Source: an uncultured Clostridia bacterium | Lineage (GTDB): Bacteria; Bacillota; Clostridia; Christensenellales; Aristaeellaceae | Length of the DNA stretch: 64,000 bases | NCBI GenBank assembly: GCA_946536315.1 | Contig: CAMNEH010000001.1 | Span: 592 to 64,591, forward strand | Direction: 5' to 3' | Part shown: piece after piece, positions 16,462 through 35,170 of the stretch | Numbering within the stretch: position 1 is the stretch's first letter | Layout of the letters: each line of letters begins with the position of its first letter | Translations under genes and position numbers: made by a program | The notes under the pieces: model-generated | What the model saw: only the letters and a program-made list of their open reading frames with translations | Database searches by the model: none | Told to the model about the DNA's origin: nothing

Positions 16462-18015
16462 TTGACGGGTATGACGAACAAGAGTGTGAAGATTGACCTG
16501 GTCAAACTCGCATTATACATCATGAAACGGTTCTGGCTGGTCGTGCTGTGCGGCGTGATCGGCTTTACCGCCTTCTACTGGCGCGCGAACGCCCAGAAGG
16601 TGGATACCTATACGGCCAACGGCACCATGTACGTATACAACGGCAACCCCAACGTGGTCAACTATCAGTATACCAACACTGCCGATCTGAACAGCGCCGT
16701 ACAGCTGCTGGACACCTATATCGTGGTGGTCAAGAGCAACAAGGTGCTCGAGGCGGTGGCCGACCGCCTGATCCCGGATTATCCGGGCATCACGCCCTCG
16801 TATATCGCGAGCACGGTGTACATGGGTTCCATCGCGGAAACGGGCGTGGTACGGGTCAGCTGCACCACGGACCAGGCCCAGAAATCCGCCGATATCTGCA
16901 ACGCGGTCCTGAATGTGGCGCCCGCGGAAATCATCCGCGTCGTGAGCGCCGGCAATATTGAGATCATCGACTACGCGACGCCGCCGCTCAAGCCCGACAG
17001 CTGGTCGCCACTGCGCAGCAGCCTGATCGGCGCAGCCATCGGCGTGGTCGGCGCGTGCCTGGTCCTTTTCCTGATTTTCCTGATCAACCAGAGCATCGCC
17101 AATTCCCGTGAACTGACCGAGGACTACATCCCCCCGGTGCTGGCGTCCATCCAGCGCGAAAAAAGCAAGAGCAAGGATCCTTCCAAGTTCGTGCTGACGA
17201 CGGAAAGCCCGCTGGATTTGATCGAGAGCTACGCCAAGCTGCGCATGAACCTGCTGTATACCCTGGTGGGCAAGGAAAGCCACGCCGTGGTGGTGACCAG
17301 CTCATTCTCTGGCGAGGGCAAAACGACCATCGCGGCCAACCTGGCGATCTCCAGCGCGATGGGCGGCAAGCACGTGCTGCTGATCGACGCGGACATGCGG
17401 CGTTCCAGCCAGCGGGAAATGTTCCACTTTCCGCAGCATGTGCCAGGCCTGTCCAACGTGCTGATCGGGGAATGCACCTGGCAGGAAGCCCTCATCAAGC
17501 CGAAGCAGGACGGCCTGGATATCCTGCCCTCCGGTCAGAAGCCGCCGAACCCTGCGGAGCTGCTGGAGTCCAGCGTCATGCACGAGCTCCTCAGCACGCT
17601 CAATCCGCTGTATGACCTGATCATCATCGACGCGCCGCCCGTGAACATCGTATCCGACCCGTTGGCGCTTTCGGATCAGACGGCCGGCAGCCTCTTCGTA
17701 GTGCGTCAGAATTTCTCGGATCACAAGGAGCTGCGAAAGGCGCTGAATTCCGCCGAGCTGACAGGCATGAATGTGCTGGGCTTCGTCTTCTACGGCGAAA
17801 AAGTCAACCGTAAGAATTACTACTATCATAAGTATTACCGCAATTACTACAACAAGTATGACCCGCGCGTGATCGAGACCGCGAACTTGAAGGCCGCCGC
17901 CATGGCGGCGAAGGAGGCTGAGCATGACAGACAAAAGGCCAAGGACGGTTCTCAGGGTGCTGGCCGTGACGCTGCTGGCGGCAGCCATGCTGACGGCGGG
18001 AGTCGCCGCGGCTGA
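16462..18015 (+). CDS. fused Wzz-type chain-length regulator / BY-kinase (polysaccharide tyrosine autokinase)
   Basis: 517 aa. N-terminal Wzz-like domain flanked by two TM helices. Walker A SFSGEGKTTIAANLA, A' LLIDADMR, B LIIIDAPP. C-terminal tyrosine cluster YYYHKYYRNYYNKY. Confidence 0.85.
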   Translation: MTGMTNKSVKIDLVKLALYIMKRFWLVVLCGVIGFTAFYWRANAQKVDTYTANGTMYVYNGNPNVVNYQYTNTADLNSAVQLLDTYIVVVKSNKVLEAVADRLIPDYPGITPSYIASTVYMGSIAETGVVRVSCTTDQAQKSADICNAVLNVAPAEIIRVVSAGNIEIIDYATPPLKPDSWSPLRSSLIGAAIGVVGACLVLFLIFLINQSIANSRELTEDYIPPVLASIQREKSKSKDPSKFVLTTESPLDLIESYAKLRMNLLYTLVGKESHAVVVTSSFSGEGKTTIAANLAISSAMGGKHVLLIDADMRRSSQREMFHFPQHVPGLSNVLIGECTWQEALIKPKQDGLDILPSGQKPPNPAELLESSVMHELLSTLNPLYDLIIIDAPPVNIVSDPLALSDQTAGSLFVVRQNFSDHKELRKALNSAELTGMNVLGFVFYGEKVNRKNYYYHKYYRNYYNKYDPRVIETANLKAAAMAAKEAEHDRQKAKDGSQGAGRDAAGGSHADGGSRRG

Positions 18016-21000
18016 GGACGCGCTCAGTCTGCCTGACTTCACGGAAACGGAATGTGTCTGGGATTCCGCGGGCAACCTGTATCTGGAAATTTCCAATGAC
18101 CTGTCCGGTCAGCCTGCGCTCAACCGGCGTGGCTTTGCGCGCGCCGTGTACGCCCTGGACGACTACGGCAACATTATCACTGAAATGTACTTCGGCACAG
18201 ACCTGTCGCTGGTCGATATCGACACGGGCTACGCCAGGGCGGAGTACACCTATGAGGTGGACGAAGAGGGTACCGCGCACCTGCTGACCGAGGACCGGTA
18301 CACCGCGGATGGAAAGCGCGCCGACATTCCCGGCGGCTACAGCTACCGCAGGGACGTCTGGCAGGGCAATCAGCGCCTGTCCAGCCGCTACTACAATGCG
18401 AATGGCGAGCTGACGCGCCCCACCGGCGGATACGCGGAGATCCTGTACGATATCGACTATGACGAGTCGGAGATGACCATCCTCAAGCGCTACCTGGATG
18501 CGGACGGCTCCCCCCTGATCGGCACGGAGGGCGGCGCGACCGCGCTGTTCAAATACCACTTCAGGACGTATTCCGCTGACGAGGATCAGCTGGAGCTGCT
18601 GGAGGAGATGAAGCGCGGCCTGTCGCTGGACGATTACCGGCTGCTGGATGAAAACTGGCGCCTCCTGGATTCCGTTGAGATTTTCGGAGCGGACGGGAGC
18701 CGCACGCTGGGCGCGGACCGCTACCACCGCCAGGTCAATACCTATGATGATCACGATAACCTGCTTCGCACGGACTATTATGATCAGGACGGCGACCGGA
18801 TTTCCGCCGGCACCGGCTACGCTTCGCTGGAAAACGAATACGATTCGCTGAACCGCCTGGTCAAGGTGAGCTATCTGGGCACCGAAGGACAGCTGATCAA
18901 GATGGTGAACGGCTATGCCCGGGTGACCTACGAATATTATGGCGGTACGGACGTCATTCATTACGAGCGCTATTTCGGCACCGACGGCCAGCGGACCATG
19001 ACCTCCGCCGGTTTTTCCATGATCGAGTACGAGTACAACGGCCCGAACTACGACTACCGTATCACGTACTACGATATCAAGGATGACTACAGCATGTTCA
19101 ACGCGGGCTACGCCCGGATCGAAAAGATCTACGGCGGCGCGCTCGCGTGGAACCGCAACGAGATCAACCAGCGCGTCGTCGTGACTTCGATGGCGGACAT
19201 CGAGCGCTATTACGGCACGGACATGAAGCTCATCGAGCTGAAGTCCGGCATCGCCGGGTACGTCAACGAGCGCAACCAGCACGGCCAGGTTTCGCGCACC
19301 ACCTATATGGACAGCAACTGGCAGCCCACCCGCAACGATGAAATGCAATACGCCTACATCGAGTACCTTTATGGCAGGGACACTGTGGACGCCCCGCCAG
19401 TGCAGGAAGCGTATTTCGACAAGGACGGGAAGCCCTGCGAGGGCCTGACCGGCACGTATATCCGGACGATGGCCTACGGCGGTCCGAACCAGAGTCTGCT
19501 GGTCGCCGAGGCGTATTACGACGCTTCCGGACGCCCGGATACCTGCGTGACGCACGGCGCGTACCGCGTGGAATACGGATTCAACGCGGAATACCGTCAG
19601 ACCTCGGTCCGGTTTTTCGATGTCAATCGTCAGCCGGTCAACAGCAATTACGGCTATGCGACGCTGCTGAGGGAGTACAGCGAAGGCAGCCGCTTGCTGT
19701 GGGAGGCCGCGTTTGACCAGAATGGCGCGCTCACGATCCTGGACGGACGGTACGCCGTCAGGGTCAACAGCTATGATTTTACCGGTCACCAGACCGGAAC
19801 ACGGTTCTACGACGAGCGCGGCGACGTCATGACCCAGGCGGAGGGCTACGCGACTGCGCTGTACACCTATGACCTGGACGGAAATGTCACCAGCACCACG
19901 TACTATAACGCAGCAGGAGAGCCGACGCTGATCAACGGCCGCGCGCGCGTCGTCCGCGAATTCGACGCGGATCACAATGTCGTTTACGAGGCATACTTTG
20001 GCACTGATTTTCAGCCGATCCGGCTCGGCGCGGGGTACGCGGCGTTCCGCTCCTCCTATGATCCGATGACCGGCGTGCTGGAGAAGATCGTGTATCTGGA
20101 TACCGACGGCCAGCCGGTGCTGCTGGCGCAGGGCTTTGCGTCATACGAGCTGAAATATGACACGAACGGGAACCTGCTCAGGCGCGCCTATTTCGATGAG
20201 GACGGTCAGCCGGTGGCCCCGGTCTCCGAGGGCTACGCCTGGTTCGAGCGCAAGTGCGACGCCTCCGGCCATGTGCTGGAGGAGGCCTACTATCAGGCGG
20301 ACGGATCACTGCTGGTCAATCGTGACAAGTACGCGGTGGTCGCCTGGACCTATGATGCGGCGGGCAACCAGACCTCGGTCACCTACCTCGGCGCCGACCG
20401 CCGGCCGGTGGATACCGCCCTGGGCTATGCCCGGATGGAGCTGTCCAGCGACTATATGGGCAATAAGACCAGCGAGGCGTACTATGACGCCGCGCTCAAA
20501 CCGACCAATATTTCCGACGGCTACCATCGCGCGGTCTTCACATGGGACGAGAGCGGACATATGCTGTCCGAGGCGTATTATGACGCGTCCGGCCGCGCGG
20601 CGGAATGCCCGTCTGGCTACGCTTCCTTTGTCAGGGAGTACGACGTGCGCGGCAACCTGACCCGCGAGGTGTACTATGACAAGGACGGCAAAATCACGAA
20701 CGTCAGCGCTGGCGCGGCCAGGATCGAGCGGGAATACGACATTTACAGCCGACTGATCAGCGAGCGTTACTATGACGAAGCCGGCCAGCCGTATATGCTG
20801 CGCGGCGACTATGCCGCCGTGGAGTACGCCTATAACCAGCAGGGGCTGATCCTGTTTGAAAAATACCTGGGCGTCGACGGCGAGCCGGTGGTATCCTCCA
20901 AGGGCTACGCGCTGATGGAGCGCGAGTATGACGCGACCGGCCATCTGCTGCATGAGCGCTTCACGGACGGCAAGGGGACGCTGATCGTTCAAAGCAACGG

Positions 21001-23785
21001 CTACGCGCATCGCGCGCAGACGTGGAACGAGCAGGGCTATCTGACCAGCGTCGCTTATTTCGGCGAGGATGACTTCTTCGTCCTTCAATCCGGGCGTTAC
21101 AGCTATATCACCTACAAGCGCGACGCGAACGGCAACTGCACCGAGCAGGCGTGGTATGTCTACGAAGGGCTGCCGACCACGATGCCGGGCGGCTACAACC
21201 GCGTGACCAATGAGTACGACAACGCTGATCACTGCGTCAAAACCACCTACTGGTACGACGACAAGACGGTCATGCTTGAGGATGGCTATGCCGCGGTCGC
21301 GTACACCTATGACGCGCGCGGACGCTTGACGCAGGAAAGCTATCTGGATCAGCGCGACCGCCGCGTGACGACAGAAAAGGGCTTCTCGGCCATCGCCTAT
21401 GTGTATGACAATTCCGGCAATACGTTGGAAGTGCGCTATATGGATACGAAGGACAAGCTGGTCCGCCTGCCCGAGGGCTTCAGCGTATGGCAGCGCGAGT
21501 ATGACCAGTACAACCACGTCATCCGTGAGCAGTACCTGGATGAGCAGGGCCGCATCGCCTCGCTGACGGACCGCGTGTCCGTGATCCGGCGGTACTTTGA
21601 CGCCCGCGGCAACCTGATCCGCCTCGAAAACCTGAGCGCCGCGCTGCAGCCGGTCGAAACCGCGCTGGGCTTCTCCACGGTCCTGTACAGCTATGACGAC
21701 CAGGACCGCCTCCTGGCGGAGGACTTCCTGAACACGCGCGGTACCAGTACGCTGATTTCTGCCGGCTACGCCGGGGTACGCTATGAGTACGGCGCTCAGG
21801 GGCGCGTCTGGCGTGTCACCTATGTGGATACCTCCGGCCAGGCGACCCTGTTCAGGGACGGCTACGCCATGGCGGAGTACTATTACGACAGCAATCTGTA
21901 CCTGACGCAGATCTACTATTTCGACGACAAATACAGCCGCGCTTATATCAGCGACGGATATTCCGCGGTGCTGCGCACGGTCAACAAAAACGGCAACATC
22001 CTGACGGAAACCTACCTGGACAACAACAACGTGCCGGTGGTCAACGCCAACGGATATGCCGCGATGCGGAATACCTGGGACGAGCGCCAGCGGATCGTCA
22101 AACGGGAGTATCTGGACGCCGAGGGCCAGCCCACGCAGCTGAGCGGCGGTTACAGCGCCATCGGCTACGCGTATGATAACATGAACAACCTCATCCGCCG
22201 TTCCTATTATAATAAGAAGGGCGCGCTGACCTGGAACGAACAGGGCTACTGCGAGATCGTATATACCTATGACGACCGCAACCACTGCGTGGAGGAAAAG
22301 CTGCTCAACGCGCAGGGAAAGCCCGCGATCCACACGCTGGGCCAGTTCTCCTCCCTGACCAGGGAGGTGGACATCGACGGCCATGTGATGTCGGTCAAGT
22401 ATTTCAGCGTCAACGGCAACCCGACTTCGTATCAGAACGAGTATGCCGAGGTCCGCTACACCTACGACCTCGCGGGCCGCGAAACGTCCGCCAGCTATTA
22501 CGACCGCTACGGTCAGCTGACCAAGGGCACCCGCGGGTATGCGAGCGTGTCCACCGCATACAACGACCTGGGCAACGTGACCGAGATCTCCTATTACGAC
22601 GAGAACGGCTCGCTGGCGAATACCAGCAAAGGCTACGCGAGGGTGGTCTATACGTACGACGCGCTGGGCAATATGACCTCGGAACGGTATTATGATACCT
22701 GGGCGCTGGGCGTCACGCCCGAGGACGCGCTCTACGCCTTCTGCCTGATGGACCATGACAGCGAAGGCCGGCTGCTCAACGAGGAGTACTATGATGAGAA
22801 TGGATGGTACGTGCTCAACAAGGACGGCTATGCGGCCCATTTCATCACGTATTCGGAAAGCGGCCACATTGCTGAGGAATACTACCTGGACGAGATGCGC
22901 GACGGCGTAGCGATCGGGGGCTTCAGCCACCGCTGGCTCATTTCTGAGGACGAAGAGCAGCGTACCTATGTCATGCAGGAAACCATCGAAAATCCGGACG
23001 AGGATGACGGGTATGTCACCCGGATCCAGACCTATGACCGCTATGACCGCCCGATCCGTACGCGTTATTATGACGCGGAGGGGAGGACGGCGCTCGGCCC
23101 GGAGGGCTGCGCGGAGGTCGTGCGCGAATACACCAGCCGCGGCGAGGTGTCCCTGCTGCTCTATTACGACGGCAACGGCAAGCCTGTGGCGATCAACGGC
23201 GCGTATGGCGTCAGCCGGACGTATAACGCGTACGAGAATCTTGAAATGGAGACCTGGCTGGACGCGTCCGGTCACCCGACCGTCTCCAGCGAAGGATATG
23301 CCTCCGCGTATTACGATTACGACCTGAGCAATTCTGCGCGCGTGGAAAAGTATTACAAGTATTATCGGGATGCGAACGGGCAGCCGACCGCCGCGAGCAA
23401 CGGCGCGTGGGGCGTGAGCACCGTCTATTATCCGACGACGCGCGTGCACGAGGTCACCTTCCTCAACGAGAACGGCCAGCCGGTGACCACCCTTGAAGGG
23501 TACGCCATCCTGGAGTATGAAGAGGATGAGTGGGGCCACCGCACATGGGAAGGCTACTACGACGACCGTCACGCGCAGGCCAACTGCGAGGCCGGCTATT
23601 CCAGCGTGGAGCGCACCTATGACAGCCAGGGCCGCCTGATTGCCGAGCGCTACCTGGACCGTTACAACAAACTGACCAACAACGTGGACGGCGTGGCGGG
23701 CTGGAACGGGTATTATGACGGCCAGGGCAATCTGGTCATCAACAACCGCTACGACGCCAACCGGCAGCCGGTGTCCGCGCGGTAA
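17924..23785 (+). CDS. giant secreted YD-repeat (RHS-repeat-like) protein without recognisable toxin tip
   Basis: 1953 aa. AGGAGG RBS (17912-17917) lies 6 nt before the ATG. Signal peptide RVLAVTLLAAAMLTAGVAAAED. The rest is almost entirely ~38-aa units of the form GYA-x5-Y-x-YD-x2-GN-x6-YYD-x2-G-x-P. Confidence 0.8.
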   Translation: MTDKRPRTVLRVLAVTLLAAAMLTAGVAAAEDALSLPDFTETECVWDSAGNLYLEISNDLSGQPALNRRGFARAVYALDDYGNIITEMYFGTDLSLVDIDTGYARAEYTYEVDEEGTAHLLTEDRYTADGKRADIPGGYSYRRDVWQGNQRLSSRYYNANGELTRPTGGYAEILYDIDYDESEMTILKRYLDADGSPLIGTEGGATALFKYHFRTYSADEDQLELLEEMKRGLSLDDYRLLDENWRLLDSVEIFGADGSRTLGADRYHRQVNTYDDHDNLLRTDYYDQDGDRISAGTGYASLENEYDSLNRLVKVSYLGTEGQLIKMVNGYARVTYEYYGGTDVIHYERYFGTDGQRTMTSAGFSMIEYEYNGPNYDYRITYYDIKDDYSMFNAGYARIEKIYGGALAWNRNEINQRVVVTSMADIERYYGTDMKLIELKSGIAGYVNERNQHGQVSRTTYMDSNWQPTRNDEMQYAYIEYLYGRDTVDAPPVQEAYFDKDGKPCEGLTGTYIRTMAYGGPNQSLLVAEAYYDASGRPDTCVTHGAYRVEYGFNAEYRQTSVRFFDVNRQPVNSNYGYATLLREYSEGSRLLWEAAFDQNGALTILDGRYAVRVNSYDFTGHQTGTRFYDERGDVMTQAEGYATALYTYDLDGNVTSTTYYNAAGEPTLINGRARVVREFDADHNVVYEAYFGTDFQPIRLGAGYAAFRSSYDPMTGVLEKIVYLDTDGQPVLLAQGFASYELKYDTNGNLLRRAYFDEDGQPVAPVSEGYAWFERKCDASGHVLEEAYYQADGSLLVNRDKYAVVAWTYDAAGNQTSVTYLGADRRPVDTALGYARMELSSDYMGNKTSEAYYDAALKPTNISDGYHRAVFTWDESGHMLSEAYYDASGRAAECPSGYASFVREYDVRGNLTREVYYDKDGKITNVSAGAARIEREYDIYSRLISERYYDEAGQPYMLRGDYAAVEYAYNQQGLILFEKYLGVDGEPVVSSKGYALMEREYDATGHLLHERFTDGKGTLIVQSNGYAHRAQTWNEQGYLTSVAYFGEDDFFVLQSGRYSYITYKRDANGNCTEQAWYVYEGLPTTMPGGYNRVTNEYDNADHCVKTTYWYDDKTVMLEDGYAAVAYTYDARGRLTQESYLDQRDRRVTTEKGFSAIAYVYDNSGNTLEVRYMDTKDKLVRLPEGFSVWQREYDQYNHVIREQYLDEQGRIASLTDRVSVIRRYFDARGNLIRLENLSAALQPVETALGFSTVLYSYDDQDRLLAEDFLNTRGTSTLISAGYAGVRYEYGAQGRVWRVTYVDTSGQATLFRDGYAMAEYYYDSNLYLTQIYYFDDKYSRAYISDGYSAVLRTVNKNGNILTETYLDNNNVPVVNANGYAAMRNTWDERQRIVKREYLDAEGQPTQLSGGYSAIGYAYDNMNNLIRRSYYNKKGALTWNEQGYCEIVYTYDDRNHCVEEKLLNAQGKPAIHTLGQFSSLTREVDIDGHVMSVKYFSVNGNPTSYQNEYAEVRYTYDLAGRETSASYYDRYGQLTKGTRGYASVSTAYNDLGNVTEISYYDENGSLANTSKGYARVVYTYDALGNMTSERYYDTWALGVTPEDALYAFCLMDHDSEGRLLNEEYYDENGWYVLNKDGYAAHFITYSESGHIAEEYYLDEMRDGVAIGGFSHRWLISEDEEQRTYVMQETIENPDEDDGYVTRIQTYDRYDRPIRTRYYDAEGRTALGPEGCAEVVREYTSRGEVSLLLYYDGNGKPVAINGAYGVSRTYNAYENLEMETWLDASGHPTVSSEGYASAYYDYDLSNSARVEKYYKYYRDANGQPTAASNGAWGVSTVYYPTTRVHEVTFLNENGQPVTTLEGYAILEYEEDEWGHRTWEGYYDDRHAQANCEAGYSSVERTYDSQGRLIAERYLDRYNKLTNNVDGVAGWNGYYDGQGNLVINNRYDANRQPVSAR
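18150..23782 (+). repeat. degenerate coding repeat array (~114-nt / ~38-aa YD double units, roughly 45-50 copies by eye)
   Basis: Recurrent GY(A/S)...Y.YD..GN...(Y/F)YD..G.P blocks are read directly from the translation. The DNA copies are diverged, not identical. Confidence 0.7.
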
Positions 23786-23803: not shown

Positions 23804-24874
23804 ATGAAGCTGATCAATACCCTCAGGTCCGGGAAGTGCCGCCGCCTGCTGGCGTGCGCCGCCGCGCTGATGATGCTGGCCGTATCGGCCCTGCCCGCGC
23901 GCGCGGCCGCGCCGGCGGACGACTGGGTCACCTTCCTGCTGATCTGCAACGAAGGCATGAACAATGACAAGGGCAATGCCGGCAGCACCATGATGGTGGT
24001 CAGCATGCACCCGGTGCAGGGAAAAATCCGGCTGATGATGTTCACGTGGGACACCTTCATCGATTATGAGGGATACGACATGCCACAGCTGCTGAATATG
24101 CCTTACCGCAACAACGGCCCGGAGGAGACGGTCAAGGTATTCAACCAGAATTTCGGTACGAACATCCAGCTGTTCATGTCCCTGAACTACCTGAACCTGG
24201 CCTCGCTGATCGACAGCTACGGCGGTGTGCGGGTGGATATCACGCGGGCGGAGCGCAACGCCCTGAACGGTATGGTCGCCTCCAAAAAGCAGCAGCTGCT
24301 CGAACAGGCAAATGCCGGGCTGATCAGCCAGGTGCTGATCGACAGGCTCGCGCAGGATTACTATCTGGACAGCTTCGGGCCGGAAACGCAGCTGAACGGC
24401 CTGCAGGCGGTCGGCTTCGGCTGGCTGCAGTATGACTCGGTATACAATTGCTGCCTGCGCGATGTCAAGGTCATCGCCGGACTGTTTCACAGCGCGGCGC
24501 AGGTGGTTTCCGAGCGCATCGCCTTCTACACCGACGAGACGGGCTACCCGGATTATACCGAGGGACGCCGCGCGATCAACCTGGACGGGATCACTGAGGA
24601 GGATTACGAATTCTTCCGCCAGCAGATGGGGCCCATTTTCCAGATGTCCTACAATAACCTGACGGAGGACGATATTACCGGCATTTCCACGGCCCTGGCG
24701 CGCATTGCCTACTATGCCGCCCGGCAGGGCGTCAACATCTTTGACCACCTGGACTATGTGGTGCTGCCGCTGGAAGCGACCAACGAATACGACATCGTGG
24801 CCGGCGCGAAGGGGCATATCATCGACAAGGCCGCCAATGCCGCCGCCATTCAGGAGTTCCTGTACGGAGACTGA
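23804..24874 (+). CDS. LCP (LytR-CpsA-Psr) family protein, divergent
   Basis: 356 aa. N-terminal signal-anchor. Segments TMMVVSMHPVQGKIRLMMFTWDTFI and LNYLNLASLIDSYGGVRVDI resemble the LCP core. The typical Arg-rich motifs are not obvious. Confidence 0.6.
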   Translation: MKLINTLRSGKCRRLLACAAALMMLAVSALPARAAAPADDWVTFLLICNEGMNNDKGNAGSTMMVVSMHPVQGKIRLMMFTWDTFIDYEGYDMPQLLNMPYRNNGPEETVKVFNQNFGTNIQLFMSLNYLNLASLIDSYGGVRVDITRAERNALNGMVASKKQQLLEQANAGLISQVLIDRLAQDYYLDSFGPETQLNGLQAVGFGWLQYDSVYNCCLRDVKVIAGLFHSAAQVVSERIAFYTDETGYPDYTEGRRAINLDGITEEDYEFFRQQMGPIFQMSYNNLTEDDITGISTALARIAYYAARQGVNIFDHLDYVVLPLEATNEYDIVAGAKGHIIDKAANAAAIQEFLYGD

Positions 24875-25061
24875 GGGATTTGTCAATCCTGCGGCCACGG
24901 GTCTGACGGGTCCGGCGCTGGCAGCGCTTCGGAATTCCTGAGGGATCATGACGGAGCTCAACCTGCACTGATCGGATTGACAGGCGGGGGAGCTCCCGAA
25001 ACACGCATTTGCCTGACGGGTCCGGCATTCTGGGAGTTTTCCAGGATTGACCGGCGGGCGG
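24871..25061. repeat. intergenic short direct repeats
   Basis: CTGACGGGTCCGGC occurs at 24903-24916 and 25013-25026. GGATTGAC(A/C)GGCGGG occurs at 24974-24990 and 25044-25061. CTGAGGGAT occurs at 24871-24879 and 24938-24946. Confidence 0.5.
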
Positions 25062-25100
25062 AGCAATGGGTATGGGAAAGGAGGCGGAGTACGGAAGACA

Positions 25101-26108
25101 ATGAGCGAAAGCGCACAGTCAAGAATTGACTCTATTGATTTTCTGAAGGTCGTCGGCCTGACGGGCATCGTCATTGCCCATACGTCGCCGCCTGGCTGGC
25201 TGCTGATGCTGCGCTGCTTTGATGTGCCGCTGATGGTCATTCTTTCGGCGATCTTAGTGACGCAGTCCTATCGGCGCAGGCGCGCCTCGCCCAACGGGAC
25301 GCGCGGGTATTACGTGGGCAGGTTCAAGCGCATCGTCTTCCCTACCTGGATTTTTCTGGTCATCTATTTCACGTATGACCTCCTGGCGGGCGGCGGCCTG
25401 AAGCCCTTCAGGTACTACCTGGATTCGTTTCTCCTGACCCGGTACGGCATCGATTATGTCTGGGTCATGCTGATTTACCTGTACAGCGCGGCGCTGGTCC
25501 CGCTGCTGGACAGCCGTCCGCTGTCGTGGAAAAGCTTTCTCCCCGTGGCGGCGGCATACCTGGTGTACGAGGTCGCCTATTACCTGAAGCTTGGGACCGA
25601 TGTCCGCTTCATCGACACGACGTTCTATTATATCGTGCCGTACGGCGCGCTGACATGGCTGGGCGTGCACTACAGGGAAATGGGCAAGGGTCTCCGGCGC
25701 GCGATCCCGGTGGCGGCCTTAGCGGTCTTCATCGCGATGGCGCTCGTGTACCGCGCAAGGACCGGCGCGTTCTACAGCGCGCAGAACGTCAAGTACCCGC
25801 CGCGGATCTATTTTCTGTCCTACGGCGTGATGTGCACGTTCGCGCTGCTCTGGTTCTGCGAAAAATTCAGGCTGCGGCTGTATTCCGCGCCGCTGGTGCG
25901 ATGGATCGCTTCGCATTCGATGTGGATTTATCTGTGGCATATCCTGGCGCTGTCCGTGGTTGACAGGCTGGGCCTGCCGCAAATCTGGTGGCTGAAGCTG
26001 GCCATTGTTTATCCCGCGGCGGCGCTGTTCACGCTGGCGGTCAACCGCTGCCTGGACGCGGTCGGACGGAAGCGCTGTCCCGCATTTTTCAAATATCTTC
26101 GAAATTAA
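25101..26108 (+). CDS. acyltransferase-3 family membrane O-acyltransferase
   Basis: ATG at 25101 is preceded by GGAAAGGAGG. Polytopic protein with N-terminal IDFLKVVGLTGIVIAHT and about 10 hydrophobic helices. Confidence 0.75.
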   Translation: MSESAQSRIDSIDFLKVVGLTGIVIAHTSPPGWLLMLRCFDVPLMVILSAILVTQSYRRRRASPNGTRGYYVGRFKRIVFPTWIFLVIYFTYDLLAGGGLKPFRYYLDSFLLTRYGIDYVWVMLIYLYSAALVPLLDSRPLSWKSFLPVAAAYLVYEVAYYLKLGTDVRFIDTTFYYIVPYGALTWLGVHYREMGKGLRRAIPVAALAVFIAMALVYRARTGAFYSAQNVKYPPRIYFLSYGVMCTFALLWFCEKFRLRLYSAPLVRWIASHSMWIYLWHILALSVVDRLGLPQIWWLKLAIVYPAAALFTLAVNRCLDAVGRKRCPAFFKYLRN

Positions 26109-26121
26109 TCGCGCGGAAGTG

Positions 26122-26150
26122 TTTTCAGCGGAGAAAAAACGTGGTATACT
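26122..26150 (+). promoter_or_regulatory. candidate promoter of the esterase gene
   Basis: TTTTCA (26122-26127), 17-nt spacer, extended -10 TGgTATACT (TATACT at 26145-26150). Confidence 0.4.
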
Positions 26151-26246
26151 GCTCACAGGGCAGCAGCCTGCGACGTTTTTGATCACGCTGGTTCATCAAA
26201 GGATATCTGTTGCTGTTTGCCCAACTGTTGTTAATGGAGGTTCACC

Positions 26247-28451
26247 ATGCGTAGTCATTCCAAGCCGAGTCTGTTGCGCCATCTGATGGCGGCGGTGATC
26301 TGCCTGGCCATGCTCATGACGGCCGTGGCCGTGCCAGCCCTCGCCGAGGAAGCCGTTTCTGACGAAAATCTCTTCAATAAGAACGATCCGGACTTTGTCG
26401 AAGGATATAACTATGTCCAGTCGACCAGTGAAATTACTGAGGAGAGCAGCAGTTTCATGACTGGATATATCGCCGTGCAGTCGGGCGATATCATCAGCGT
26501 GAACCTCCACAGCACGCGGGACGCGGATTTTGTCAAATACGCCCTGTTCGACACGAATATGAACTGGATCGACACGATCAAGACGAATTACGTGTCTGAA
26601 CTGACCATCCGCATCTTCCAGGACGGGTTCGTGCGCATTACCGTGTTTGGCCTGGAATATGAAGAGACCATCACCATCTTCAAGAGCGCTCAGGGGGCCG
26701 CCAGCGCGGCGGACATCCCCGAGTCCCTGCTGATGTCCTCCAATAACACCAACATCGTGGTCAAAACGACGGAGGAGGATCCTGAGGTCTTCAACAAGGA
26801 CTGGTTTGACCGCTCTGACCCCGACTTCCTCGATATGCACAACTACGTTCAGTATACCAGCAGCATCGTGGAGGAGAGCGACAGCTTCATCACCGGTTAC
26901 ATTCCGGTGGGCAAGGGCGACGCGGTCACGGTATCGCTGAACCTCGACGAGCGGACCTCCCCGTTCATCAAATGCGCGTATTATAATAAGAACAAGGAAT
27001 GGCTCCGCAACGAACGCTTCAATTATGTGACGACCGTGACCCTGACGATGGAGGAGGCCGGGTATCTCCGCTTCTCGATCAACGGCCGGCTCTTCAAGAA
27101 TACGGCGTCGATCTACATCCATCCGTCCACCAAGCTCTTCTCCGATCAGCAGATCGAGGACGTCATCCTGCCGTCCATCGCGAACACCGACCGCTATATG
27201 GAAACCTTCAACCAGGTTTACCTGTCGGGCGAGACGGTGGATCTGTTCAACCGCAACGACGACAGCTTCGAGATGGATAAGGGCTACAGCCAGCTGACCG
27301 GCGACGTCATCGACGACGAAGGCTCCTTCCTGACCGGCTACATCCCGGTGGCCGCCGGACAGGTGATCGTCGTCAGCTTCTCCCAGGCGAGCGAGTTTGC
27401 GAAGTACGCGCTGTATGACAGCGACCGCCAGTGGCTGACGACATCGCGTGTCAACAATCCGACCGCGCTGATCGTTCCCATCGAACAGGCCGGCTACTTC
27501 CGCCTCCATGGCCATGACAACGCCATCAACGGCACCACGATCACCATCCCCACTGTCCGGAAGCTCGATATCAGCGCAGTGTCCGGCGATATCGGCGCCC
27601 GACTGGAGCGCCTGGAATCCACGGTGTCCGTCATCGACCAGGTCGACCTGATCGTCTTTATGGGCCAGTCCAATATGGCCGGCCGCGGCATCGTCACCGA
27701 AGAGTTCCCCGAGGACGCGCCGGCTGTCACCGAAGGCGCCGGGTGGGAATTCCGCGCCGTCTCCGACCCGACCAAGCTCTATCCGATCGACAAGTATTTC
27801 GGCCTGTATGAAAACGTCGAGGGCGCTATCAATGACGGCAACAGCAAGACCGGCGGTCTGGTGCCCGCGTTTGTGAACGCCTACTATGAGAAAAACGGCC
27901 ATGTGCCCGTGGTCGGCGTTTCCGCCAGCGAAGGCGGTACGTCCCTGGTCGACTGGCAGCCCGGCACCGAGCGGTTTGACGACCTGCTCAACCGCCTGAC
28001 CACCAGCGTCGCCTGGCTTCAGGACAACGGCTATCACATCCGCCACCAGTACATCGTATGGTGCCAGGGCGAGACCGACGACATCGAGATGGAGGAGTGG
28101 TACATCACCAACTTCAACGCGATCCTGAACACGCTGAAGGAAGCGGGCATTGAAAAATGCTTCATGATCCGTGTGGGCAACAGCAACCCTGCGACCCAGG
28201 ACAAGATCACGCTGATGGAGACGCAGAACCGCATCTGCCAGAACGACAAGGACGTGATCATGATTTCCACCGACCTGGCCGGCATGCTGGAACGCGGACT
28301 GATGAAGGACGATCTGCACTACTATCAGCAGGCCTATAACGAGACAGGCGAACACGCCGGCGTGAACATGGCCTTCTACGTGATGAACGGGAAAGAGCCC
28401 TTCATGTATGACCCGCAGTTCGGCGATCTCTATTACTCCATCGTGAACTGA
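26247..28451 (+). CDS. secreted carbohydrate esterase (SASA/sialate-O-acetylesterase-like SGNH domain) with three N-terminal tandem domains
   Basis: Has a signal peptide. Three ~130-aa repeats each begin (L/V)FN(K/R)(N/D)...DF and contain SF(M/I/L)TGYI(A/P)V..G(D/Q). The C-terminal domain carries GQSNMAGRG and DDLHYY motifs. Confidence 0.75.
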   Translation: MRSHSKPSLLRHLMAAVICLAMLMTAVAVPALAEEAVSDENLFNKNDPDFVEGYNYVQSTSEITEESSSFMTGYIAVQSGDIISVNLHSTRDADFVKYALFDTNMNWIDTIKTNYVSELTIRIFQDGFVRITVFGLEYEETITIFKSAQGAASAADIPESLLMSSNNTNIVVKTTEEDPEVFNKDWFDRSDPDFLDMHNYVQYTSSIVEESDSFITGYIPVGKGDAVTVSLNLDERTSPFIKCAYYNKNKEWLRNERFNYVTTVTLTMEEAGYLRFSINGRLFKNTASIYIHPSTKLFSDQQIEDVILPSIANTDRYMETFNQVYLSGETVDLFNRNDDSFEMDKGYSQLTGDVIDDEGSFLTGYIPVAAGQVIVVSFSQASEFAKYALYDSDRQWLTTSRVNNPTALIVPIEQAGYFRLHGHDNAINGTTITIPTVRKLDISAVSGDIGARLERLESTVSVIDQVDLIVFMGQSNMAGRGIVTEEFPEDAPAVTEGAGWEFRAVSDPTKLYPIDKYFGLYENVEGAINDGNSKTGGLVPAFVNAYYEKNGHVPVVGVSASEGGTSLVDWQPGTERFDDLLNRLTTSVAWLQDNGYHIRHQYIVWCQGETDDIEMEEWYITNFNAILNTLKEAGIEKCFMIRVGNSNPATQDKITLMETQNRICQNDKDVIMISTDLAGMLERGLMKDDLHYYQQAYNETGEHAGVNMAFYVMNGKEPFMYDPQFGDLYYSIVN

Positions 28452-28490
28452 CGTTCGCGCCACTGCGGCTGCACCACTTTCGTATTGACG

Positions 28491-28528
28491 CTCACCTTCT
28501 CCGGCACGACCGGGGAAGGTGAGTTTAT
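28491..28528 (+). terminator. intrinsic terminator after the esterase gene
   Basis: CTCACCTTCTCCGG-cacga-CCGGGGAAGGTGAG forms a 14-bp stem with one G-U pair, followed by TTTAT. Confidence 0.7.
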
Positions 28529-28566
28529 ACTGACTGACGATCATCCATGGCCGGAGCGGGAAAGGT

Positions 28567-29439
28567 ATGCAGGAATACGATCAGGCGCTGTTAAAAAGAG
28601 TCCAGAAGGTCGATCTGGAGATGGCGAAGTACTTTGTCCGGTTTTGTCAGGAAAACGGGCTGCTGTGCTACTTCTGCGGCGGCGGTTGCATCGGCGCCGT
28701 GCGCCATCACGGCTTTATCCCCTGGGACGACGACCTGGACTTTTTCATGCCCAGAAAAGACTATGAGCGGCTGAAGACGCTGTGGAAGGATGACGGCCGC
28801 TATGCGCTCAGGTACCCGACGGCGGAAAACCAGGACCATAATATGTTCATGACCGTGCGTGACCGCCAGACGACCATGATCAAACCGACCCAGCAGGACC
28901 TGGACATCGTTCACGGCATCGCGCTGGATGTTTTCCCGCTCGACGGCTATCCCAACAGTGCGCTCCAGCGTGCGGCGCAGGTCTTCTGGGGCCTGACGTA
29001 TCAGCTGTTCTGCGCGCAGGTCGTGCCGGAGAATCACGGCCGCCTGGTGACCGCCTTTGGCAAGCTGCTCCTGGCGATCGTCCGGCGTCCGGCCGCACGC
29101 TACCGGATCTGGAAGCACGCGGAAGCCAGAATGTCACGCTATCCCATCTCACAATGCGAAGCGATCACGGAAATCTGCGCCGGACCGCACTACATGCGTA
29201 ACCGTTACCCGAAGGAGATTTTTGCCGACGCGCTGTTTCTGGACTTTGAGGACACGAAGATGCCGGTGCCGGTGGGGTATGACCGGTATCTGCGTATCGC
29301 CTTCGGCGACTATATGCAGCTCCCGCCCAGGGAGAAGCAGGTGCCGGCCCACGACGCGGTCCTGCTGGATCCGGACCACCCCTATACCCAGTATAAGGGC
29401 CGGTACTATTGCGTAACGCGCAGGGAGGCGAACCGATGA
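28567..29439 (+). CDS. LicD-family phosphotransferase (phosphocholine / alditol-phosphate transferase type)
   Basis: CYFCGGGCIGAVRHHGFIPWDDDLDFFMPRKDY is the LicD nucleotidyltransferase-fold DxD region. Confidence 0.85.
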   Translation: MQEYDQALLKRVQKVDLEMAKYFVRFCQENGLLCYFCGGGCIGAVRHHGFIPWDDDLDFFMPRKDYERLKTLWKDDGRYALRYPTAENQDHNMFMTVRDRQTTMIKPTQQDLDIVHGIALDVFPLDGYPNSALQRAAQVFWGLTYQLFCAQVVPENHGRLVTAFGKLLLAIVRRPAARYRIWKHAEARMSRYPISQCEAITEICAGPHYMRNRYPKEIFADALFLDFEDTKMPVPVGYDRYLRIAFGDYMQLPPREKQVPAHDAVLLDPDHPYTQYKGRYYCVTRREANR

Positions 29440-30413
29440 AGCCGCTGATTTCGGTCGTCGTGCCCGTATACAACGTCGCGTCCTATCTGGAAAAATGTCT
29501 GGACTCCATCCTGGCGCAGACGTTTCAGGACATGGAGGTGATCGTGGTCGACGACGGCGCCACGGACGGAAGCGGCGCGATCTGCGACCGCTATGCCCGG
29601 CAGGATCCCCGTGTGCGTGTGATCCATCAGGCCAACGGCGGGCTCAGCGCCGCGCGCAATTGCGGCATTGAGCACGCCTCGGGAACATACATCGGCTTTG
29701 TCGACAGTGACGACTATATCGCCCCGGATATGTATGAAACGCTCCTCGGACTGCTCACGTCGCAGCGGGCGGATATCGCCATGTGCGCCCTGTATGATAT
29801 GTACGACGGGCAGCCGGTCAAGGTGAACACGACGGAGCAGGTGATGACCGTCGGCCGCGAGGAGGCCATGAAAATCGTCCTGGAGGCGGAAATCGTATCC
29901 GTGACGGCGGTCAACAAGCTTTATCGACGTTCACTGTTCGATACGGTCAGGTACCCCGTCGGCAAGACCGCGGAGGACGCGTTCGTCATCATCGAGCTGC
30001 TCGACCTGTGCGATACCGTGGTCATTACGTCCGCGCAGAAGTATTATTATATCCACCGCGGCAACAGCATCACGTCCCGAAGCTTCAATCCGCATACCCT
30101 GGACACGATCGAGGCGTACCGCAAAAACGCGGCGCTGATCGAACGGAAATATCCGCAGCTGCGGGATACGGCGGAAATGCGCCTGTGCTGGGCGTACTTT
30201 TACGTACTGGACCGACTGGTCTATGATACATCCCCGGAATACGTTCAGACCAGGCAGGAGGTCGTCGCCTTTTTGCGGCGCCGCTTCGCCTTTATCATGA
30301 AGGACCGGCGGTTCACACCCGCCAGGAAGCTGAGCGAGCTCATGCTGATGGTCAGTGTCAGGGCTTACCGGGCCTGCGTCGACCTGCAGAACCGCCGCTA
30401 CAGAATCACCTGA
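29436..30413 (+). CDS. glycosyltransferase family 2
   Basis: The ATG overlaps the licD-like stop (ATGA). Motifs: VVVPVYNVASYLEKCLDSILAQT, VVDDGATDGS, GFVDSDD. Confidence 0.85.
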   Translation: MKPLISVVVPVYNVASYLEKCLDSILAQTFQDMEVIVVDDGATDGSGAICDRYARQDPRVRVIHQANGGLSAARNCGIEHASGTYIGFVDSDDYIAPDMYETLLGLLTSQRADIAMCALYDMYDGQPVKVNTTEQVMTVGREEAMKIVLEAEIVSVTAVNKLYRRSLFDTVRYPVGKTAEDAFVIIELLDLCDTVVITSAQKYYYIHRGNSITSRSFNPHTLDTIEAYRKNAALIERKYPQLRDTAEMRLCWAYFYVLDRLVYDTSPEYVQTRQEVVAFLRRRFAFIMKDRRFTPARKLSELMLMVSVRAYRACVDLQNRRYRIT

Positions 30414-30432
30414 AGAAACAGAGGATGAACCT

Positions 30433-31149
30433 ATGACGACAGCGATTGTGATCGCCGGCGGCGCCGGCAGCCGGATGGGGCAGGATATCCCCAAGCAGTT
30501 TATTCACGTATACGACAAGCCGGTGCTGATCTATACGCTGGAGGGCTTTCAGAAGCATCCGCAGATCGACGCGATCGAGCTGGTCTGCATCGACGGCTGG
30601 CACGACGTGGCCCTGGCGTACGCGAAGCAGTACAACATCACCAAGCTGCAGTGGATCGTATCCGGCGGCGCCAGCGGACAGGAATCGATCCGCAACGGCG
30701 TGTTCCATCTCGAGGGCAAGGCCGCGCCCGATGACATCATCATCATTCACGACGGCATCCGGCCGCTGGTGGATGAGTCGGTCCTCAGCGACGTGATCCT
30801 CAAATGCAGGCGGTATGGGAACGCCGTCACGTCCATGCCGTATAACGAGCAGATATTCGTGGCGGACGACGACATCAGCACCACGCGGTTTATCCCCCGT
30901 GAAACGCTGCGCAGGGTCGCGACCCCGCAGGCGTATCGTTTTGATCTGCTCGATGAAAAGTATCACGAGGCGTTTGAAAAGGGCATCGGCATCCACGGCT
31001 CGCATTACACCAACACCATGATGGTCGAGCTGGGCGTACGGCTGTACTTTGCCGCCGGCTCGGACAAGAACATCAAGCTCACCACCAAGGACGACCTGGA
31101 AATGTTTAAGGCCTACCTGAAGTCGGACAAGCAGAACTGGCTGAAATAA
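30433..31149 (+). CDS. IspD/TarI-like cytidylyltransferase (CDP-alditol synthesis)
   Basis: MTTAIVIAGGAGSRMGQDIPKQFIHVYDKPVLIYTLEGF matches the IspD-family N-terminal P-loop-like motif. The track start at 30355 was rejected because it overlaps the GT2 gene. Confidence 0.85.
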   Translation: MTTAIVIAGGAGSRMGQDIPKQFIHVYDKPVLIYTLEGFQKHPQIDAIELVCIDGWHDVALAYAKQYNITKLQWIVSGGASGQESIRNGVFHLEGKAAPDDIIIIHDGIRPLVDESVLSDVILKCRRYGNAVTSMPYNEQIFVADDDISTTRFIPRETLRRVATPQAYRFDLLDEKYHEAFEKGIGIHGSHYTNTMMVELGVRLYFAAGSDKNIKLTTKDDLEMFKAYLKSDKQNWLK

Positions 31150-31160
31150 AGGGGCGACAG

Positions 31161-32222
31161 ATGAGTCTGTATCAGAATGCGTTATATCTCGAGGACGTTC
31201 GCAAAACGGCCGCTGAGGCGCTGCCGTGGGACATGCTTGCGCAAAAGCGTGTGATGCTGTCCGGCGCGACCGGCATGATCGGCAGCTTCCTGGTGGACGT
31301 CCTGATGGAAAAGAACCGGGAGGGGCTGGATTGCACCGTGTACGCGCTCGGGCGCAGCGAGGCGCGGGCCAGGGCGCGGTTTGACGCGCACGCCGGGGAC
31401 CCCCGGCTGATCTTTGTCCCGTATGACGCGCAGCGCCCGTTTTCCGGCGAAGGGGTCGAAGCGGTGGATTACGTGCTGCACCTGGCGTCCAACACGCACC
31501 CGATGCAGTATTCGCTGGACCCGATCGGCACCATCCTGACCAATCTCCTCGGCGCGCAGAGCCTGCTGGAGTATGCCGCTTCGCACGGCGCGTCGCGGTT
31601 CGCGTTTGCCTCATCCAACGAGGTCTACGGCGAAAACCGGGGCGATACGGAGCTGTTTGATGAGCGCTACTGCGGGTATCTGAACCCGAACACCCTGCGC
31701 GCCGGCTACCCTGAAAGCAAGCGCTGCGGCGAGGCGCTCTGCCAGGCCTACCGGGCCCAGAGGGGGCTGGATGTCGTGATTCCCCGGCTGACGCGCACCT
31801 ACGGCCCGACCATGCTGATGTCCGATACCAAGGCGGTCAGCCAGTTCATCCGCAAGGGCGTGGCCGGGGAGGACATCGTCCTCAAGTCGGCCGGCGCGCA
31901 GTACTACAGCTTTCAGTACATGGCGGACTCGGTCAGCGGCCTGCTCACGGTGCTGCTGAAGGGCGAAAGCGGCGAAGCCTATAATATCGCCGAAGCGGGG
32001 TCCGACATCACCCTTCGGGACCTGGCCGCCCTGATCGCCCGCGTGAGCGGCACGCAGGTCGTATTTGAAATCCCTGACGCGGTCGAGGCGGCGGGCTACA
32101 GCACGGCCACCAAGGCCCGGCTGGACGGCCGCAAGCTGGCGGCGCTGGGCTGGCGCCCGCGGTACGATATTGCCGCCGGCATCGAGCGCACGGTGGCGAT
32201 CCTTCGGGAGGTGCGGCCGTGA
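31161..32222 (+). CDS. extended SDR NAD(P)-dependent reductase/epimerase
   Basis: Rossmann motif LSGATGMIGSFL and catalytic YxxxK (YPESK). 353 aa, directly downstream of the cytidylyltransferase. Confidence 0.8.
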   Translation: MSLYQNALYLEDVRKTAAEALPWDMLAQKRVMLSGATGMIGSFLVDVLMEKNREGLDCTVYALGRSEARARARFDAHAGDPRLIFVPYDAQRPFSGEGVEAVDYVLHLASNTHPMQYSLDPIGTILTNLLGAQSLLEYAASHGASRFAFASSNEVYGENRGDTELFDERYCGYLNPNTLRAGYPESKRCGEALCQAYRAQRGLDVVIPRLTRTYGPTMLMSDTKAVSQFIRKGVAGEDIVLKSAGAQYYSFQYMADSVSGLLTVLLKGESGEAYNIAEAGSDITLRDLAALIARVSGTQVVFEIPDAVEAAGYSTATKARLDGRKLAALGWRPRYDIAAGIERTVAILREVRP

Positions 32223-32264
32223 CGCGCTTTCCTGTGACAGATCATCCGTAAATGGGGCCGCAGT

Positions 32265-33467: not shown

Positions 33468-34255
33468 TACCCAGGGTGATCCACTACTGCTGGTTCGGAG
33501 GCGCGGAGAAGAGCGAAATGATCCGCCGCTGCGTCGCCAGCTGGCAAAAATACTGCCCGGATTACGAGATCATCGAATGGAACGAGTCCAATTACGACGT
33601 CACGGCCCAGCCGTTCGTCCGCCGCGCTTACGAGGCCAAAAAGTGGGCGTTCGTGTCGGATTACGCGCGCATCGACATCCTGAACCGTCAGGGCGGCGTG
33701 TATCTGGATACGGACGTGGAGCTGCTCAAGCCGCTGGACCCGTTCCTGGCCTATGATTTCTTTGCCGGCTTCGAAAGCCGGGACTACGTCGCCTTCGGTC
33801 TGGGGTTCGGCGCGGTCGCCGGTCATCCGGTGCTCCGTGACATCCTGAATACCTATGCCGCCATCGATTTTACGGACGATCCGCTGGCGCTGGAAAAGAC
33901 CTCCTGCCCCAAAATCCAGACGGAAGCGCTGAAGAAGGTCGGCCTGATCTGCGATAACCGGAACCAGACGCCGGGCGGCTGCCATATTTTCAGCACCGAA
34001 TACTTCTGCCCGATGTCCTTTGAAACGGGACAGACGGTCATCACGGAAAACACGGTCAGCATCCATCACTATGATATGTCCTGGTTCATGGACGCCTACA
34101 GGAAGGCCAAGCAGCAGGAATGGCGGATGGTCCGCCGCTTCGGCCCGCGCTGGGGGAAGCGCGTCGCCTCACTGCTCAGCTTCCCCGCCAAGCTGGCGGC
34201 GCACGCTCAAAAGGGAACGCTGTTTTCGTACCTCCGCAGCCTGCTGCGCCATTAA
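33464..34255 (+). CDS. GT32-like glycosyltransferase (DXD sugar-binding region)
   Basis: The GTG at 33464 overlaps the wzy-like stop (GTGA). Motifs: IHYCWFG and DYARIDILNRQGGVYLDTDVE. Confidence 0.75.
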   Translation: MIPRVIHYCWFGGAEKSEMIRRCVASWQKYCPDYEIIEWNESNYDVTAQPFVRRAYEAKKWAFVSDYARIDILNRQGGVYLDTDVELLKPLDPFLAYDFFAGFESRDYVAFGLGFGAVAGHPVLRDILNTYAAIDFTDDPLALEKTSCPKIQTEALKKVGLICDNRNQTPGGCHIFSTEYFCPMSFETGQTVITENTVSIHHYDMSWFMDAYRKAKQQEWRMVRRFGPRWGKRVASLLSFPAKLAAHAQKGTLFSYLRSLLRH

Positions 34256-34266
34256 AGGAAATCAGT

Positions 34267-35163: not shown

Positions 35164-35170
35164 GACGGAC

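Follow-up and report, generated by a model that had tools for sequence, protein, structure and literature searches.

To our knowledge, Rhs/YD proteins are understood almost wholly as toxin containers or, in animals, as the teneurin adhesion receptors. The CROP repeats and the choline- and cell-wall-binding repeats serve glycan or teichoic-acid binding. In Actinomyces oris, LcpA, an LCP (LytR-CpsA-Psr) enzyme, glycosylates the surface protein GspA (PMC6381275). The present analysis concerns a repeat protein, given the working label REP, which is encoded by an open reading frame (ORF) at 17924-23785 on the forward strand of a 64,000-nucleotide stretch of DNA (the window) from an uncultured Clostridia bacterium of the Aristaeellaceae (contig CAMNEH010000001.1, positions 592 to 64,591).

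REP is the invariant middle gene of an operon-like Wzz/BY-kinase-REP-LCP cassette in a rumen/gut Clostridiales clade. It departs from the known roles of Rhs/YD proteins in being toxin-less, Sec-exported and of fixed length, and in lying between a capsule-type kinase and an LCP gene. The surface-sugar machinery to which the two neighbours belong probably has in REP a third part that has not been described before. Tentatively, and with a probability that we put at about 0.45, REP is read as working with the kinase/LCP module outside the cytoplasm, as a scaffold or as a partner that binds glycan. Searches of the literature on YD-repeat/Rhs proteins brought to light no protein of this kind and no YD-like member of a kinase/LCP cassette.

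The kinase-REP-LCP gene cassette

The three genes of the cassette and the sites that define the start of REP are as follows.

16462..18015 (+): fused Wzz polysaccharide co-polymerase and P-loop BY-type tyrosine kinase (Pfam Wzz at 10-102, AAA_31/CbiA/ParA at 274-394)
17911..17917 (+): Shine-Dalgarno sequence AAGGAGG, 6 nt 5' of the REP ATG
17924..23785 (+): REP coding sequence, stop included; ATG start, 1953 aa, a secreted, all-repeat, YD-like protein
17924..18013 (+): predicted Sec signal peptide of REP, residues 1-30, with an AAA-ED site and without a lipobox Cys
23804..24874 (+): LCP (LytR-CpsA-Psr) glycopolymer transferase (PF03816, 45.5 bits against a cut-off of 24.6)

The kinase carries a C-terminal tyrosine cluster, YYYHKYYRNYYNKY, encoded at about 17818-17859; its ORF runs 30 codons past this cluster, and the last 92 nt of the ORF are shared with the 5' end of REP. 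At the other end, 18 nt separate the REP stop from the ATG of the LCP gene, which has the ribosome-binding site GGGAGG. The LCP protein begins with a hydrophobic membrane segment, and a 68%-identical homolog is named “LCP family protein” by NCBI. No terminator-like sites were found between the kinase, REP and LCP genes, the terminator count being at chance level. The tight packing between BY-kinase and LCP claimed in a preliminary description of this DNA is thus borne out by the 92-nt overlap and the 18-nt spacer. The kinase-REP junction differs among loci, with a 47-nt overlap in L010 and gaps of 13-69 nt at other orthologous loci.

The same description had proposed the 1953-aa ORF with its signal peptide, which agrees with the ATG, the AAGGAGG sequence and a Sec-type leader composed of a KRPR n-region, a 19-residue hydrophobic core (residues 7-25) and the AAA-ED site. 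A comparable hydrophobic N-terminal leader was present in all seven aligned REP orthologues. The public annotation of the contig places the start at GTG 17957, 11 codons downstream of the ATG, giving a protein of 1942 aa; such a start would delete the basic n-region of the signal peptide. The ATG at 17924 is preferred over GTG 17957 because of its better match to the ribosome-binding site and signal peptide.

A total of 56 related loci were examined, and the trio was intact in all of them; a metagenome scan with ortholog alignment gave 49 loci, and the annotated loci numbered seven. Flank counts for the metagenome were restricted to loci whose flank reached 600 nt or more. Orthologues of the kinase (43-66% identity) were located upstream of REP in 36 of 36 such metagenome loci and in L001, L005-L007 and L010-L012. 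Orthologues of LCP (60-81% identity) followed REP directly in 35 of 35, as well as in L001, L006, L007 and L010-L012. The 55%-identical ortholog P0001 is flanked by a Wzz/kinase gene and an LCP gene, and the same flanks were found in two GTDB species, the Clostridiales metagenome-assembled genomes (MAGs) RUI553 and RUG10690 (59% identity).

Three of the annotated loci, L010, L011 and L012, were chosen via homology to the LCP protein alone, for which at least 120 clusters exist at 63-76% identity. Each of them encodes a kinase, then a protein of 1937-1969 aa without Pfam hits, and then LCP. The middle protein is REP, as judged from a single collinear tblastn high-scoring segment pair at 53-63% identity. 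In every annotated locus the spacer between REP and LCP is 15-22 nt, and beyond the trio almost no neighbours are shared between loci. The comparison of genomes suggested in the preliminary description therefore gave the kinase-REP-LCP order at every related locus examined; REP was present throughout, and is not an insertion absent from related loci.

The conserved unit is smaller than the “glycan locus” of that description. The term is true of the window, in which glycan genes occupy the 25-45 kb region; what is conserved is the three-gene cassette, and the glycan genes are variable. In L006, L011 and L001 the glycan island is absent, and LCP is followed directly by genes homologous to those at 45123-50846 of the window. 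Since LCP there adjoins the 45-51 kb homologues, the 25-45 kb glycan genes represent a variable island. This island is partly shared with L010, and other glycan genes replace it in L012.

The strict spacing between REP and LCP, and the pairing of the two at every locus, would also suit a protein acceptor. REP could be a surface glycoprotein or layer protein that receives the lipid-linked glycan from the adjacent LCP enzyme, with glycan length set by the Wzz/BY-kinase. The LcpA-GspA pair offers a precedent (PMC6381275), and REP is large, acidic and exported, with 10.9% Tyr and a composition rich in Tyr, Thr and Ser. GspA, however, is anchored by sortase, and REP lacks any anchor signal. Moreover, REP has no glycosylation motif or low-complexity Ser/Thr linker, and a fixed architecture of 57 units is not obviously needed by a pure acceptor. 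We regard this explanation as unlikely.

Repeat architecture of REP

Apart from its leader, REP consists of a single repeat array.

18041..23782 (+): repeat array covering residues 40-1953, with ~57 units of 32 aa, each a beta-hairpin (repeat hidden Markov model, AlphaFold2 secondary structure)

When split at its G[YF][AS] anchors, REP has a period of 32 aa, the unit consensus being GYARVEYEYDERGNLTEEAYYDADGKPVL plus 3 residues. A repeat hidden Markov model (HMM) built from 15 exact 32-aa units of REP gave 57 matches in the protein, many of them single units at E values of 1e-10 to 1e-16. Once the HMM had been iterated a single time over all homologues, it retained 48 strong units, with 32 as the commonest spacing. 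HMM scoring begins at residue 70, and AlphaFold2 shows the first hairpin at residues 40-59. The array closes with a truncated unit, 34 aa lying beyond the last scored unit.

The preliminary description was accurate in stating that almost the whole protein is built from repeats and ends inside one. Its unit of about 38 aa and its count of 45-50 units gave way, respectively, to the 32-aa period (from both anchor splitting and HMM spacing) and to about 57 units (48-57 by HMM, 57 hairpins in the AlphaFold2 models). Its equation of the unit with paired YD/RHS repeats needs amending: the two YD-like turns found in each unit, YDxxGN and YYDxxGxP, are unequally spaced (11 and 21 residues), and the unit is more than a simple pair of canonical 21-aa YD repeats.

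Within the unit, positions 2, 3, 5, 9, 15, 16, 20 and 21 are mainly hydrophobic or aromatic, positions 7 and 27-30 are hydrophobic in about half of cases, and positions 6, 8 and 17-19 are mostly polar or charged. The two faces of the strands differ accordingly, one being hydrophobic/aromatic and the other polar. Conservation within the unit peaks at the structural positions and is lowest at the turn tips. No tandem repetition was found in REP at the DNA level, so that the units are old and diverged; a recent DNA-level expansion of the repeat was rejected on the same ground.

Family assignment and absence of toxin and anchor modules

The assignment of REP to a known family by sequence is marginal. 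Pfam RHS_repeat (PF05593) scored 31.2 bits against a cut-off of 22, in only 3 stretches among the ~57 units, and the ortholog P0001 scored 20.1 bits, under the cut-off. NCBIfam YD-repeat models (e.g., TIGR01643, searched at E<=1) and Rhs-core models gave no match on REP, and neither did the MORN and MORN_2 families (PF02493 and PF07661) at E<=1. In distant relatives of REP, Pfam matches to MORN_2 were sub-threshold or stretch-less. A phmmer search of REP against PDB sequences yielded no match at E<=1, and the sole match of the family profile was a teneurin-like protein (E 4e-4). PADLOC, which models anti-phage defence proteins, had no model match for REP or for its TIR, STAND and Metallophos relatives, and matched one relative solely via a generic kinase domain. 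Pfam, NCBIfam and PADLOC thus hold no model that describes the repeat family.

The Rhs-core motif was sought in REP with the expressions DP.G[LWIV] and P.{4}DP.G, both of which came up empty, and no Pfam or NCBIfam core model matched. No toxin domain was matched in Pfam or NCBIfam, nor were the secretion-system domains PAAR, VgrG and LXG. No immunity gene lies 3' of REP, the following gene being LCP. As regards retention at the surface, a sequence scan of REP for the motifs LP.TG and NP.TN and for a hydrophobic segment at the C-terminus found none of these, and SLH, choline-binding and CW_binding_1 repeats had no Pfam match at E<=1. On all of these points the preliminary description is upheld: it had reported no RHS core, toxin or immunity gene and no LPXTG, SLH or choline anchor, and the possibility it had raised, that the repeats match a cell-wall-binding family, found no such match in Pfam. 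REP was accordingly rejected as a cell-wall-binding, choline-binding or SLH repeat protein.

The RHS_repeat score above threshold, together with the strong structural matches to Rhs effectors of the type VI secretion system described below, might suggest a degenerate or tip-less polymorphic Rhs toxin, whose toxin has been lost or is supplied by a separate gene. Against this stand the lack of a core, a toxin, an immunity gene or PAAR/VgrG/LXG domains, the LCP gene in the next position, and a C-terminus that is highly conserved, in contrast to the hypervariable tips of polymorphic toxins. No REP ortholog has a C-terminal extension (35 full-length sequences). In the wider repeat family, for which hydropathy and repeat positions were analyzed in 145 representatives, the tail past the last repeat is at most 178 aa in all but three. 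This alternative is close to refuted, and a canonical Rhs toxin was rejected for want of a core, toxin and immunity gene and in view of the conserved C-terminus.

Predicted structure

Two overlapping halves of REP were modeled with AlphaFold2, using alignments of 32-33 family members.

N-terminal half model: residues 31-1152, predicted local distance difference test (pLDDT) 85.1, predicted template modelling score (pTM) 0.54
C-terminal half model: residues 994-1953, pLDDT 90.9, pTM 0.61

In both models each 32-aa unit forms one hairpin, with strands at unit positions 4-9 and 15-21, followed by a 14-residue connector that contains a single bridge residue near unit position 27. Combined, the two models contain 57 hairpins. 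The N-terminal half includes three low-confidence insertions, at residues ~217-244 (helical), 386-433 and 507-542, and the C-terminal half a low-confidence unit at ~1249-1283.

In Foldseek searches against the PDB, Rhs effectors, Tc BC proteins, teneurins and the mosquito protein SGS1 (8fjp) occupied the ranks from 1 to 35-42, with E values of 1e-31 to 1e-14 and a probability of 1.0 for both halves. Engineered OspA single-layer sheets were the next matches after the YD shells. In a viral structure library, MORN-repeat proteins were the best matches (E 5e-15 and weaker), and a weak structural match to TcsL was also noted (E 5e-9). The local fold of REP, as modeled, is of the Rhs/teneurin/Tc YD type. 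The global fit of the half-length models to solved shells was poor, with template modelling (TM) scores of 0.09-0.32 and a root-mean-square deviation of ~30 A over ~1000 columns. The predicted global path of the sheet appears to depart from a closed cocoon, the open or closed shape being judged from the Foldseek TM-scores of the half models only. The surface shell proposed in the preliminary description in place of a toxin is therefore sustained with respect to a YD-like, toxin-less fold, and not with respect to superposition on closed cocoons.

A cocoon of Rhs/Tc type, or a wall-spanning conduit, closing around cargo or glycan would be in keeping with the local fold of the YD shells, with the fixed length, which suits a closed architecture, and with the hydrophobic/aromatic face of the sheet. 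The ~114 strands counted in REP are presumably similar in number to those of the TcB-TcC shell. Both halves nevertheless superimpose poorly on every solved shell, their pTM values are low (0.54-0.61), and REP has no N-terminal plug, Rhs core, aspartyl-protease motif or cargo domain. Closure of this kind is judged improbable.

Fixed length and conservation among orthologues

The length of REP is fixed. In 35 full-length orthologues at 49-62% identity, the mature protein measures 1887-1959 aa (median 1924), and no indels of whole 32-aa units occur among them. In an alignment of seven orthologues, the only indels outside the signal peptide were at residues 114-118 and at residues 220-243, apart from a small number of gaps 1-3 residues long. 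Two segments mark the extremes of conservation.

18560..18655 (+): insertion within a single hairpin, residues ~213-244, variable and in part helical (pLDDT <50, two helices)
21473..21568 (+): most conserved unit, EGFSVWQREYDQYNHVIREQYLDEQGRIASLT, residues 1184-1215 (mean column conservation 0.89 in 35 orthologues)

The insertion is the sole long indel-prone region and holds the largest indel run in the 35 orthologues; the window of lowest conservation (0.30) falls at residues 215-246. The unit at 1184-1215, by contrast, is a nearly unbroken run of invariant columns and a candidate site of function or contact. Conservation is also among the highest in the C-terminal window 1900-1931 (0.86). 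One apparent exception to the fixed length, P0002 (L005 1842-5894), which had been called complete at 1092 aa, was rejected as a natural short variant: its stop is probably an error, since the tblastn match runs on in frame to the end of the contig, which has 3x coverage.

The constancy of the array bears on the view of REP as an adhesin or environment-binding protein (for plant fibre, host glycans or cells) that is merely co-transcribed and takes no part in the assembly of glycopolymer. Adhesins are commonly long beta-repeat proteins that carry a signal peptide, and Tyr-rich surfaces fit carbohydrate binding; the names of the source MAGs (RUG and RUI series), which we take to indicate polysaccharide-rich rumen habitats, would suggest a suitable setting. 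Adhesin arrays, however, usually vary in copy number, whereas the number of units in REP is fixed in 35 orthologues, and the position between kinase and LCP has been kept at every locus while all other neighbours have changed. An adhesin of this kind is distinctly unlikely.

A wider family of 32-residue repeat proteins

REP belongs to a much larger group of proteins. A word-indexed search returned two close relatives and 29 distant ones, and an exhaustive search of representatives returned 4242 proteins at E<=1e-3, with 1223 at E<=1e-30. The usual member consists of an N-terminal domain, one hydrophobic helix, the repeats and a short C-terminal tail. Among the N-terminal domains of distant members are TIR_2/ThsB_TIR, nSTAND1/AAA_16, Pkinase and Metallophos (metallophosphoesterase). 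The cytoplasmic nature of these domains would place the repeats on the outer side of the membrane. Some members, a minority to which REP belongs, have a signal peptide only, and others have a multi-pass N-terminus (e.g., P0006-P0008). Proteins P0004-P0031 and P0037-P0176 illustrate the breadth of the group, in which hundreds of single-pass proteins carry the 32-aa repeat as a predicted ectodomain and are receptor-like in layout.

Judging from these layouts, the repeats may serve the cell envelope as a module for ligand binding or scaffolding, and not as a toxin container, because in other members they form the extracytoplasmic part of TIR, STAND, kinase and phosphoesterase membrane proteins. 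The ligand of the 32-aa repeat could reveal how TIR, STAND and Ser/Thr-kinase membrane proteins, which are of signalling or immune type, sense outside events.

Two of the distant multi-pass membrane members, P0006 and P0007, are ~25% identical to REP. P0006 (L002 7788-16144) is encoded in a polysaccharide locus with flippase, GT10, Acyl_transf_3, SH3_3 and MBOAT genes, and P0007 (L063 2870-10288) adjoins PAP2/GDPD, Acyl_transf_3 and sugar-nucleotidyltransferase genes. Both lie just 3' of the Acyl_transf_3 gene, with the SH3_3 gene intervening in L002. An Acyl_transf_3 gene also follows the cassette of REP itself in the window and in L010. In addition, giant FecR/MBG_2 proteins and SpoIIE phosphatases with CHASE2 or dCache domains recur near family members, at 1-1364 and 19008-20927 of L011, a locus of the REP cassette, and at 3632-16664 of L064, the locus of the Metallophos-TM-repeat relative P0011.

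Proposed role of REP

Physical partnership of REP with the kinase and LCP, and binding of glycan or wall, are inferred from gene context. On the favoured reading, REP would remain, after Sec export, in the wall or on the outer surface of the membrane, where it would form a rigid Tyr-rich platform and work together with those domains of the co-polymerase/kinase and of the LCP ligase that lie outside the cytoplasm. While chain length is being set and the polymer attached, such a platform could hold or steer the growing glycopolymer or the peptidoglycan that accepts it. Its function would be general and would not depend on the chemistry of the glycan, as with the conserved cpsA-D block with which streptococcal capsule loci open, because the glycan genes beside the cassette vary or are absent.

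Several observations weigh against this scaffold or partner role. At least four of the seven annotated loci have no polysaccharide biosynthesis genes within 10 kb after LCP, which leaves the cassette only indirectly tied to any particular glycan; in one locus, L001, a glycosyltransferase gene is found upstream. The orthologous genomes are fairly close (LCP 60-81%), and part of the synteny could be inherited and not selected, although all neighbours other than the trio have been reshuffled despite this kinship. The pattern of conservation within the repeat unit does not single out a ligand-binding face. Finally, REP has no retention signal (LPXTG, SLH, cell-wall-binding repeat or lipobox) and could thus simply be released.

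A bolder version of the scaffold or partner role would make REP the structural third component of Gram-positive glycopolymer assembly: a YD-type shell or superhelix of fixed size, docked on the kinase and LCP, that acts as a wall-traversing guide or cage for the growing polymer and, in function, as the monoderm counterpart of Wza/OPX, the export component in the outer membrane of Gram-negative Wzy systems, with the same module serving as the polymer-sensing ectodomain of TIR, STAND and kinase proteins. This extension is speculative, and we hold it to be quite doubtful.

Other genes in the window

The remainder of the window contains the variable island, followed by a RiPP-like cluster (ribosomally synthesized and post-translationally modified peptides) at 45123-56282.

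25047..45037 (+): variable Wzy-type glycopolymer biosynthesis island (Pfam), outside the conserved cassette
45123: S24-like peptidase
45607-45879: PqqD-type recognition protein
45876-47024: radical SAM enzyme
47050-47262: 70-aa ORF with a Cys-containing C-terminus, then a 278-aa protein
48430: ABC exporter
50136: metallophosphoesterase
51891-56282: pair of ABC exporters, of which the first has a C39 peptidase domain

The genes of the island encode Acyl_transf_3, a SASA esterase, LicD, GT2, an IspD/TarI-like protein, an epimerase/reductase and Wzy_C, the rest being GT2, NTP_transf_5, two AlgX-like proteins, DUF6020 and VanZ. The product of 26247-28451 is a 734-aa protein with a SASA (sialate O-acetylesterase-like) domain at 466-703 only, its N-terminal 460 aa being without a Pfam match. 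This protein and Acyl_transf_3 are also encoded directly 3' of LCP in L010 (56% identity). Homologues of the RiPP-like genes directly adjoin the kinase-REP-LCP cassette in L006, L011 and L001.

At ~16 kb the guanine-plus-cytosine content falls from ~0.67 to 0.575, which coincides with the boundary between housekeeping genes and the envelope cassette. The housekeeping side includes ClpB (4809-7430), MetRS (8738-10741) and two ABC exporters (12651-16162). ORFs of 880, 389, 360, 334, 290 and 505 aa, at 915-4564, 7487-8569, 10713-12614 and 35171-36688, had no Pfam match at the thresholds used. Rfam gave no match within the window.

Comparison with known systems

With the Rhs, Tc and teneurin shells (RhsA, 7q97 and 7pq5; TcB-TcC, 4o9x; teneurin, 6fb3), REP shares a continuous antiparallel sheet of YD-type hairpins. 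It differs from the Rhs shells in its unit, 32 aa with two unequal turns versus ~21 aa, in the lack of an autoprotease, plug, toxin, immunity gene or secretion adaptor, in its Sec export and in its kinase/LCP context. The MORN and MORN_2 (YwqK-type) proteins likewise contain arrays of short beta-hairpins with an aromatic-x-x-G turn, but their period is 22-23 aa as opposed to 32 aa, and the matches of REP to Rhs shells are far stronger. The Tyr/Gly-rich hairpin-plus-loop repeats of REP also resemble the clostridial CROP and the choline- and cell-wall-binding solenoids, but in structural comparisons it matches these more weakly than the Rhs shells by over 20 orders of magnitude.

The LcpA-GspA system (PMC6381275) similarly pairs an LCP enzyme with a specific large surface protein; GspA, unlike REP, is a sortase substrate and not YD-like. 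The cpsA-cpsD block of Firmicute capsule loci is comparable as a cassette of co-polymerase/BY-kinase and LCP ligase, and in the window, L010 and L012 variable glycan-specific genes follow the cassette, as in cps loci. In contrast to cpsA-cpsD, the co-polymerase and kinase are fused here, no CpsB-type phosphatase was seen, and the 1953-aa secreted REP lies between kinase and LCP. We know of no REP-like component in the described cps, eps or teichoic-acid systems. REP thus points to a component missing from the standard picture of the Gram-positive Wzy/LCP pathway, and to a new job for the YD fold in envelope glycopolymer assembly. Compared with the known systems, the fold class is already familiar; what is new is the unit, the array without core or toxin, its extracytoplasmic use and its gene context.

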